64,000 nt of DNA, from the NCBI RefSeq assembly GCF_041886205.1, contig NZ_CP169029.1; one strand, given 5' to 3'. A program made the translations under genes and the position numbers. This document shows, piece after piece, positions 18,590 to 18,983 of this stretch; within the stretch, counting starts at the first letter, position 1, and the number at the start of each line of letters is the position of its first letter. The stretch is from Escherichia coli. Lineage in GTDB: Bacteria; Pseudomonadota; Gammaproteobacteria; Enterobacterales; Enterobacteriaceae. Below the pieces are notes generated by a model, which saw only the letters and a program-made list of their open reading frames with translations, was not told the origin of the DNA and made no database searches.

Positions 18590-18763
18590 TCACATTATTT
18601 TGATTTTGACATCATAACTTTCAAGCCCGGTCATTTTTTCTCGTGCGGTGAAGCGAATTTCAGAGACTTCTTTCCCTGTATTCTTGTTCAGCTCGGCGAT
18701 TTTTTGCGCGATAAAGTCGGCGATTTCCGTTTCGGCTTGTTTTTTTAACTCTTCAATATTCAC
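18590..18763 (-). CDS. gnsA: GnsA, small protein (57 aa)
   Basis: Hand-translated from reverse strand: GTG start, MNIEELKKQAE...KIKIM; below ORF-track cutoff. Confidence 0.75.
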   Translation of the reverse strand: MNIEELKKQAETEIADFIAQKIAELNKNTGKEVSEIRFTAREKMTGLESYDVKIKIM

Positions 18764-18983
18764 TGTTAACCTCTTCTGGTCTTAAAAGACAGCAACACGC
18801 CAGTAAGGTGTTGGTTCCCGGTACCCTGGTCAGGTAAGAAATGTTATAAGCCATCTCCCCGAAAGATTCAATAATCAACAGGTTATCGCTTACTATACAT
18901 ACAGCGTTGAAGAAAAATAAGGCAGATATAAAAAAGGCTCCACGAGGGAGCCTGATATTATTTTGTGAAATCCAGCGGCGCAT
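18753..18983 (-). CDS. ymcE: YmcE (Sfa), small membrane protein
   Basis: ORF 18753..19016; start set at MRRWISQNN; overlaps gnsA start by 11 nt. Confidence 0.5.
   Translation of the reverse strand: MRRWISQNNIRLPRGAFFISALFFFNAVCIVSDNLLIIESFGEMAYNISYLTRVPGTNTLLACCCLLRPEEVNSEY

Follow-up and report, generated by a model that had tools for sequence, protein, structure and literature searches.

At the cspG locus of Escherichia coli, two small genes, ymcE and gnsA, are annotated on the same strand with overlapping ends, and the arrangement raises the question of whether both are real genes and whether translation of one is tied to the other. A first-pass annotation, made from the letters of a 64,000-nucleotide stretch of E. 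coli DNA (contig NZ_CP169029.1; hereafter the window), had placed the gnsA start 11 nt inside the 3' end of the ymcE frame and had suggested either translational coupling or one wrong call. The overlap was recovered on the shared strand at 18753-18763 from both the ORF listing and RefSeq. That gnsA had been missing from a track of ORFs of 60 aa or longer has a simple explanation, as the gene is 57 aa long. Both genes have long been annotated, the locus is known, and the overlap itself is ordinary.

We took the annotation from the RefSeq record of an identical E. coli stretch and mapped it onto the window (position 1501 of the locus is window position 18400). The features used below are as follows.

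17468-18541, plus strand: yccM (RefSeq mapping)
18590-18763, minus strand: gnsA, 57 aa, GTG start (ORF listing and RefSeq)
18749-18800, minus strand: 52-nt block with no differences among seven Escherichia lineages (alignment)
18753-18763, minus strand: ymcE/gnsA overlap, 11 nt (ORF coordinates and direct reading of the sequence)
18753-18983, minus strand: ymcE (sfa), annotated ORF, 76 aa, ATG start (RefSeq)
18770-18775, minus strand: gnsA Shine-Dalgarno sequence AAGAGG, 6 nt upstream of the GTG
18843-18878, minus strand: conserved non-coding box upstream of gnsA/gnsB, TTGATTATTGAATC...TATAAC (cross-locus conservation)
18925-18953, minus strand: intrinsic terminator of cspG-ymcF, inside ymcE codons 11-20 (terminator scan)
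18958-19146, minus strand: ymcF, 62 aa, annotated ATT start, CxxC...CxxC zinc-ribbon-like
19157-19369, minus strand: cspG, first gene of the cassette (RefSeq; Pfam CSD)
19103-19525, minus strand: cspA-type thermoregulator 5' UTR before cspG (Rfam RF01766, 159 bits)
19655-19867, plus strand: cspH (RefSeq mapping)

In MG1655, these genes lie at 1051684-1052240, with the ymcF ATT at 1051684, the ymcE ATG at 1051847, an in-frame TTG ahead of it at 1051814, and the gnsA GTG at 1052067. Of 5,426 complete E. coli genomes, 5,391 matched a 1.1-kb query covering the locus with 95% identity or more and 80% coverage or more. The reading that we consider probable is that gnsA is genuine and starts alone, while ymcE is an unconstrained open frame and not a conserved protein gene, situated in a cassette that lacks ynfN.

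gnsA is a genuine small gene with its own start signal

GnsA matched Pfam PF08178 (GnsAB_toxin) with 122.3 bits against a cut-off of 27, over HMM residues 1-54 of 54, and phrog_2301 with E = 1e-33; PDB entries 4XO1 and 4XO2 aligned with GnsA residues 1-57 (E = 1e-31). Within the GnsA/GnsB family (PF08178; E. coli gnsA and the Qin-prophage gnsB), the gnsA of the window encodes the K-12 GnsA sequence itself and, as gnsB does, lies inside a cold-shock cassette. Unlike gnsB-type cassettes, the chromosomal gnsA has no ynfN-like gene upstream. One further match, in a Margulisiibacteriota genome, was of low identity and was set aside as spurious.

The start of gnsA carries its own ribosome-binding signal. 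Pairing of its Shine-Dalgarno sequence with the anti-Shine-Dalgarno was calculated at -6.5 kcal/mol, within the top 6% of random positions, and the AGAGG before the start was kept in all viral variants and in all 12 loci compared, six of them from Citrobacter and the others from six Escherichia lineages, all in species-representative genomes. GnsA was intact in each of these 12 loci, with a GTG or an ATG start at an unchanged position. When seven Escherichia lineages were aligned, the variable columns of gnsA fell 7/1/18 over the three codon positions with no gaps, and the 52-nt block identical in all of them reaches from the gnsA leader, with its Shine-Dalgarno sequence, through the start codon to the end of codon 5. 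A longer N-terminus for GnsA is ruled out because an in-frame TAA stands 18 nt upstream of the GTG.

The opposite assignment would make gnsA the wrong call and ymcE, or a longer fusion, the true product. It can point to the non-ATG start and small size of gnsA and to a few database proteins in which the GnsA and YmcE families are fused. The crystal structure, however, spans exactly residues 1-57, the start position and Shine-Dalgarno sequence are conserved with the TAA closing the frame upstream, and the codon-position bias is strong. Plasmid-borne gnsA, overexpressed alone, restored unsaturated fatty acid levels and rescued growth (bioRxiv 10.1101/2024.03.27.586906). Overexpression of gnsA has also been described as raising unsaturated fatty acids and suppressing fabA6 and secG-null defects (Sugai 2001, as cited in bioRxiv 10.1101/2024.03.27.586906 and PMC3050900). 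We give the opposite assignment practically no credence: gnsA is real and belongs to the GnsA/GnsB family.

The ymcE frame lacks a Shine-Dalgarno sequence and crosses a terminator

On the minus strand, an 87-aa ORF opens with TTG and occupies 18753..19016; its internal ATG at 18983 gives the annotated 76-aa YmcE, and the in-frame TTG at 19016 is a possible alternative start of the frame. The ATG lies inside ymcF, 23 nt before the ymcF stop, so that ymcE and ymcF overlap by 26 nt (18958-18983). From the 3' end of ymcF, the frame passes through the terminator and a short variable spacer into the conserved DNA upstream of gns, and it ends at a TGA (18755-18753) formed by gnsA codons 3-4 (ATT GAA). 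The overlap with ymcF and the terminator inside ymcE are two features that the first-pass annotation did not contain.

No Shine-Dalgarno sequence was found before the ymcE ATG, where anti-Shine-Dalgarno pairing came to +0.7 kcal/mol; pairing was stronger at 94% of random positions. Set against the -6.5 kcal/mol at gnsA, this agrees with the earlier remark that ymcE has no strong RBS.

The terminator begins 4 nt past the ymcF TAA and consists of the stem AGGCUCC/GGAGCCU (7 bp, 5 of them G-C pairs) followed by TTTTTT, with a calculated dG of -11.8 kcal/mol in the window. The hairpin was kept in all 20 distinct variants (7-9 bp, dG -10 to -16 kcal/mol), among which a paired change from GGCUCC/GGAGCC to GGCCCC/GGGGCC and also a G-U variant occurred. 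These variants were folded one by one, as differences in loop length put the alignment fold out of register. Read in the ymcE frame, the hairpin becomes the peptide RLPRGAFF. The Rfam family STnc220, a Salmonella sRNA, gave a weak match, below its gathering score, over the ymcF 3' end and the terminator, which fits a transcript 3' end at the terminator. YmcF, whose gene ends just before the hairpin, matched Pfam PF23641 with 166 bits.

Neither its length nor its database matches single out the ymcE frame as a gene. When its exclusive 193 nt were shuffled, the frame survived in 2.4% of cases. Of the 96 ORFs of 76-149 aa in the window, 81 are shadow ORFs nested in longer ones, and ORF length alone is therefore no evidence of a gene. 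YmcE scored 188.9 bits against Pfam YmcE_antitoxin (PF15939) and 187 bits against NCBIfam PRK09891, but these matches are circular because the families hold only the Escherichia/Shigella ORF itself. Searches of PDB and PHROG returned no YmcE match, and those in Pfam and NCBIfam returned only the self-defined YmcE families.

The ymcE frame is broken in four of six other Escherichia lineages

We compared ymcE in a small sample of seven Escherichia lineages, consisting of the E. coli of the window and six others (L003-L008). The ymcE ATG was lost in four of the six; it reads ATA in L005 and AGG in the other three, L003, L004 (E. albertii), and L006. The frame was likewise broken in four, although not the same four: L003 had a 6-nt deletion leading to an in-frame stop, a 1-nt deletion near 18825 was present in both L006 and L008 (E. 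whittamii), and L007 had deletions of 2 nt and 1 nt and several stops. In L004 and L005, the frame was open although it had no ATG. In five of the seven lineages, an open frame sets out from the 3' end of ymcF and either enters the gnsA start or ends no more than 18 nt short of it.

The pattern of substitution in ymcE also differed from that of its neighbors. Variable columns in the 192 nt exclusive to ymcE were distributed 12/6/10 over the codon positions with 9 gap columns, compared with 5/4/24 for cspG and 3/2/20 for ymcF; cspG, ymcF, and gnsA had zero gap columns in the seven-lineage alignment. In L007, tblastn identity was 100% for YmcF, 98.6% for CspG, 95% for YccM, and 95% for GnsA, and 56% for YmcE.

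Within E. coli, the ymcE frame was open in nearly all of 5,414 genomes, which counts against our reading but is a test of little power because divergence within the species is at most about 1.5% here. Strain E500002 has ymcE annotated as frameshifted, by a 1-nt deletion at 18917, with gnsA intact. The converse was seen in O157:H7 SS17, where gnsA is frameshifted in an A7 run (18746) and ymcE is intact, which fits a report that GnsAB_toxin is rare in ST11 (PMC10790755). The SS17 case shows that gnsA can be lost and says nothing of a need for ymcE.

Among 5.8 billion proteins, we found 28 YmcE clusters with lengths of 43-130 aa. All of the named clusters came from Escherichia or Shigella, barring one partial protein labelled 'Salmonella' on a 532-bp contig, and several were frame-change fusions with GnsA, YmcF, or a cold-shock domain. 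Every comparative test agrees, and on this evidence, ymcE appears to be free of coding constraint.

These comparisons also bear on the two options offered for the overlap. They favor a wrong call, which would be ymcE. The 11-nt geometry fits coupling, yet coupling is not supported by the sequence comparison, because gnsA has its own conserved Shine-Dalgarno sequence and suffers no damage in lineages with a disrupted ymcE frame.

The Escherichia locus resembles a phage-type cassette without ynfN

The Qin prophage carries a paralogous cassette, cspI-ynfQ-ynfR-ynfN-gnsB, in which YmcE is absent, and in phage mEp460, the lysis genes are followed by csp, a 76-aa hypothetical protein, and gnsB. Among 80 viral-contig loci with a GnsA relative, the order CspG-YmcF-YnfN-like-GnsA was present in 73, and ymcF was found upstream of gns in 76. 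YmcE occurred in one of the 80, and that one is host E. coli chromosome, so that it was absent from all 79 true viral loci. In Citrobacter, a ynfN-like gene (phrog_3425, no Pfam family) was present in five of six loci, and intact YmcE was present in none; two loci (L010 and L014) held a frame fragment of 40-42 residues.

When Escherichia was compared with Citrobacter L014 by blastn, two collinear blocks were obtained, one from cspG through the ymcF stop and the other from 18874 through gnsA, and the ynfN-like gene lay between them in Citrobacter only. We considered whether YmcE could be a diverged YnfN and rejected it, as BLASTP found no similarity between the two.

The phage-type cassette (csp-ymcF/ynfQ-terminator-ynfN-gnsB, as in Qin, mEp460, other lambdoid phages, and prophage-like loci of Citrobacter) thus shares with the Escherichia locus its gene order, a terminator 4-7 nt past the ymcF-like stop, the TTGATTATTGA box, and the gns Shine-Dalgarno sequence. 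It differs in that the Escherichia cspG locus has no ynfN-like gene (phrog_3425) of ~230 nt and the ymcE frame fills the shortened spacer. The first-pass view of ymcE as the weaker call holds up on all counts taken together: the missing Shine-Dalgarno sequence, the ATG lost and the frame broken in four of six lineages each, the flat codon-position counts, the terminator inside the frame, and the absence from viral loci.

We propose that the Escherichia locus is a phage-type cold-shock cassette from which ynfN was probably deleted, leaving about 190 nt of non-coding DNA, and that the ymcE frame exists because of this remnant. The frame would run from an ATG without a Shine-Dalgarno sequence in ymcF, across the terminator and the DNA of the gnsA promoter and leader, to its TGA, and the 11-nt overlap would be a by-product of that path and not a coupling device. 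Translation of gnsA would be independent, from its GTG and its own conserved Shine-Dalgarno sequence. We infer that the cell makes no meaningful amount of YmcE protein, with low-level translation in K-12 conceivable. The conserved phage cassette points to the ynfN-like protein, and not YmcE, as the regular neighbor of GnsA/B.

In several respects, ymcE resembles the shadow or spurious ORFs that lie over intergenic regulatory DNA: it is confined to one genus, its substitutions are flat over codon positions, indels are tolerated, its translation is the T-rich, hydrophobic reading of a terminator and U-tract, and its HMM is built from itself alone. Unlike most spurious ORFs, ymcE has been written about for a long time (as sfa, 'cold shock gene', or 'antitoxin'), and an RNA signal has been measured for it. 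In 2001, Sugai et al. reportedly traced the suppressor phenotype first ascribed to sfa (ymcE) to gnsA.

Conserved DNA upstream of gnsA may contain its promoter

The ymcE frame also covers conserved non-coding DNA. A box with TTGATTATTGA, and with TTTA(T/A/C)A about 20 nt further on, is shared by the Escherichia, Citrobacter, and phage loci, and its flanks diverge. This box may be the gnsA promoter, with a -35 element TTGAAT at 18871-18866, a 17-nt spacer, and a -10 element TATAAC at 18848-18843. A consensus promoter scan made no call at this putative promoter, which it missed because the -10 element is without the final T. Our literature search found no paper joining gnsA with transcription start-site mapping.

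Two other candidates for this region were rejected. A sigma-32 promoter has been suggested (PMC3050900), and by eye, we saw no CCCCAT-type -10 element in the sequence. A special RNA structure in the gnsA leader was not borne out either, as the fold of 18750-18975 (minus strand) had a z-score of only -1.3.

The source of gnsA mRNA would then be a promoter inside the "ymcE" region, cold read-through of the cspG-ymcF terminator, or both. CspA-family proteins have been reported as transcription antiterminators. For the RNA region under ymcE, a terminator followed by the gnsA leader is the better reading.

The toxin-antitoxin pairing of YmcE and GnsA is unsupported

ymcE-gnsA has been interpreted as a type II toxin-antitoxin operon, in which the antitoxin YmcE comes first and the 11-nt overlap couples translation and sets the ratio of the two proteins. 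The pair does look the part. As in relBE and yefM-yoeB, the genes are small, co-oriented, and overlapping, with the putative antitoxin upstream, and so short an overlap is typical of such pairs. The Pfam families are named GnsAB_toxin and YmcE_antitoxin, and ymcE-gnsA is listed among the E. coli type II systems (PMC8484670, PMC12219334, and PMC10790755).

The comparative results do not match this interpretation. The two are not co-conserved, since gns occurs without an intact YmcE in the 79 viral loci, the 6 Citrobacter loci, and Qin. Four Escherichia lineages and strain E500002 carry a broken ymcE together with an intact gnsA, a combination that would be harmful if GnsA needed YmcE. The Shine-Dalgarno sequence is absent at ymcE and is strong and its own at gnsA, and for YmcE, searches of Pfam, NCBIfam, PDB, and PHROG yielded no domain, DNA-binding or otherwise, outside the family defined from YmcE itself. 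In contrast to operons of the relBE/yefM-yoeB type, then, ymcE has no ribosome-binding site or coding constraint and no DNA-binding domain recognized in these databases, and gnsA persists alone in many lineages. A modelling paper singles out ymcE-gnsA as an outlier, with toxin exceeding antitoxin throughout (PMC8484670), and our literature search gave no primary experiment on binding, neutralisation, or growth arrest; the reviews and models found there list the pair. We regard a toxin-antitoxin operon as very unlikely; the pairing is unsupported and the 'antitoxin' label is doubtful.

The main use of this result is as an annotation caveat, since those who curate or consult databases meet YmcE as an antitoxin in Pfam PF15939, in toxin-antitoxin lists, in expression models, and even in predictions of fold switching.

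Cold induction and the possibility of an upstream ORF

Expression data at this locus come from cold shock. At 15 °C, the signal of the ymcE array probe increases along with that of cspG (PMC2948877), and in the Qin cassette, tagged YnfR is strongly cold-induced (PMC6001520); ynfR has 21 codons, lies across the homologous terminator, and is equivalent in position to ymcE. Both observations fit, indirectly, read-through transcription. Under our proposed explanation, the cold-induced 'ymcE' RNA signal would be terminator read-through or gnsA leader RNA and, if this is true, 'ymcE' expression data are to be read as a signal of cspG read-through or of the gnsA leader.

The same observations can be read in favor of a young gene. 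On this alternative, ymcE is a recent E. coli/Shigella gene or a regulatory upstream ORF that is translated on cold read-through transcripts of cspG-ymcF and tunes termination and gnsA initiation. The homologous terminator is spanned by ynfR in a matching relative frame (KAPSGAFL compared with RLPRGAFF) with a cold-induced tagged product, ymcE RNA is co-induced with cspG, a long frame toward the gnsA start is kept in the five of seven Escherichia lineages, and so long an open frame is locally unusual, as the shuffles indicated. On the other hand, the start codon of ymcE varies between lineages and no Shine-Dalgarno sequence precedes it, an ATG directly past the ymcF-like stop is confined to a Qin-type subgroup, and L007 has several stops; shared ancestry by itself predicts that a frame persists among sequences that are 90-99% identical. 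We consider this alternative rather unlikely. Its more specific form, by analogy with ynfR, in which ymcE would be a recently born cold-shock upstream ORF through which ribosome traffic in the cold affects both terminator read-through and the synthesis of GnsA, we consider unlikely. If true, an upstream-ORF reading of ymcE would mean that a gene had arisen from DNA laid bare when ynfN was lost.

Published translation data were searched for the two genes, and the papers covered yielded neither start-site profiling nor proteomic evidence at this locus. No ymcE or gnsA entries were found in the supplements of PMC4909307 (tetracycline-inhibited profiling) or Stringer 2021, which were searched with gene names and MG1655 coordinates, or in the main text of Weaver 2019. 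For a ymcE clone of the ASKA collection, a small effect on butanol tolerance has been described (PMC3050900), which is a point against our proposed explanation.

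The gene next to gnsA and gnsB

Among the 80 viral-contig loci that carry a GnsA relative, 76 have a gene for a YnfN-like protein between the terminator and gnsA/B, and the same arrangement is present in 5 of the 6 Citrobacter loci. The protein is conserved, has 76 residues, begins MKKVIVFFNSE... and belongs to phrog_3425, while no Pfam family was found for it. The regular neighbor of GnsA/B is this YnfN-like protein and not YmcE. The 51-residue YnfN of the K-12 Qin prophage looks like a copy that has decayed at its N-terminus.

YnfN-like gene, 76 aa: approximately 2060-2300 in the Citrobacter loci L009 and L011-L014; 1398-1628 in the compared locus L020
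ynfN region: 2455-2667 in the compared locus L002
Cassette without ynfN: approximately 1938-2671 in L010 (Citrobacter sp. NCU1)

The Citrobacter sp. NCU1 locus is a second cassette without ynfN, and it aligns collinearly with its E. coli counterpart along 800 nt, with 70% identity. It carries a truncated csp gene, and its ymcE-like frame is open for only 46 codons and has no ATG. The loss of ynfN may have occurred independently in the two loci or in their common ancestor.

Reading frames at the terminator

ymcF: 18958-19146, minus strand, 62 aa, two CxxC pairs, annotated start ATT
ynfR, 21 aa: 2689-2754 in L002; also in Qin-type viral loci such as L037 and L094

The ATT start of ymcF lies 10 nt past the cspG stop, and the coding constraint on the gene is strong (codon-position pattern 3/2/20). 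It was found beside csp genes in 76 of the 80 viral gns loci; since there is no PHROG family for ymcF, it is probably overlooked routinely in phage annotation. A weak Rfam match to the Salmonella sRNA STnc220 (18920-19000, minus strand; 34 bits versus a gathering score of 60) covers the final ymcF codons and the terminator, an alignment which suggests that a ymcF-like mRNA has STnc220 as its 3' end.

The ynfR frame starts 2 nt past the ynfQ stop and is translated directly across the terminator hairpin, and its ATG is limited to the Qin-type subgroup of cassettes. Tagged YnfR is cold-induced (PMC6001520).

The gnsA gene: 3' side and natural variants

Inverted repeat GAACATCACC / GGTGATGTTC: 18556-18583, perfect, 10 bp
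Antisense ORF from the ORF listing: 18575-18748, plus strand, 57 aa, GTG start

The repeat sits in the gap that separates the yccM stop (18541) from the convergent gnsA stop (18590) and may form a 3'-end hairpin common to both genes; neither strand has a clear U-tract there, and this site was not called by the terminator scan. The plus-strand ORF is exactly antisense to gnsA, is equal to it in length and appears to be a mirror shadow ORF of that gene.

In O157:H7 SS17 (L017 638-810), gnsA is frameshifted by the loss of one A from the A7 run in codons 6 to 8 (equivalent to 18746 in the window), while ymcE is intact. The frameshift agrees with the reported rarity of GnsAB_toxin in ST11 (6%; PMC10790755). 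In TW10690 (L018 1-620), an IS4 element stands in place of cspG, ymcF, and the terminator, and gnsA is kept together with about 190 nt upstream; here, the PGAP call in the ymcE frame is a truncated 58-aa "cold-shock protein."
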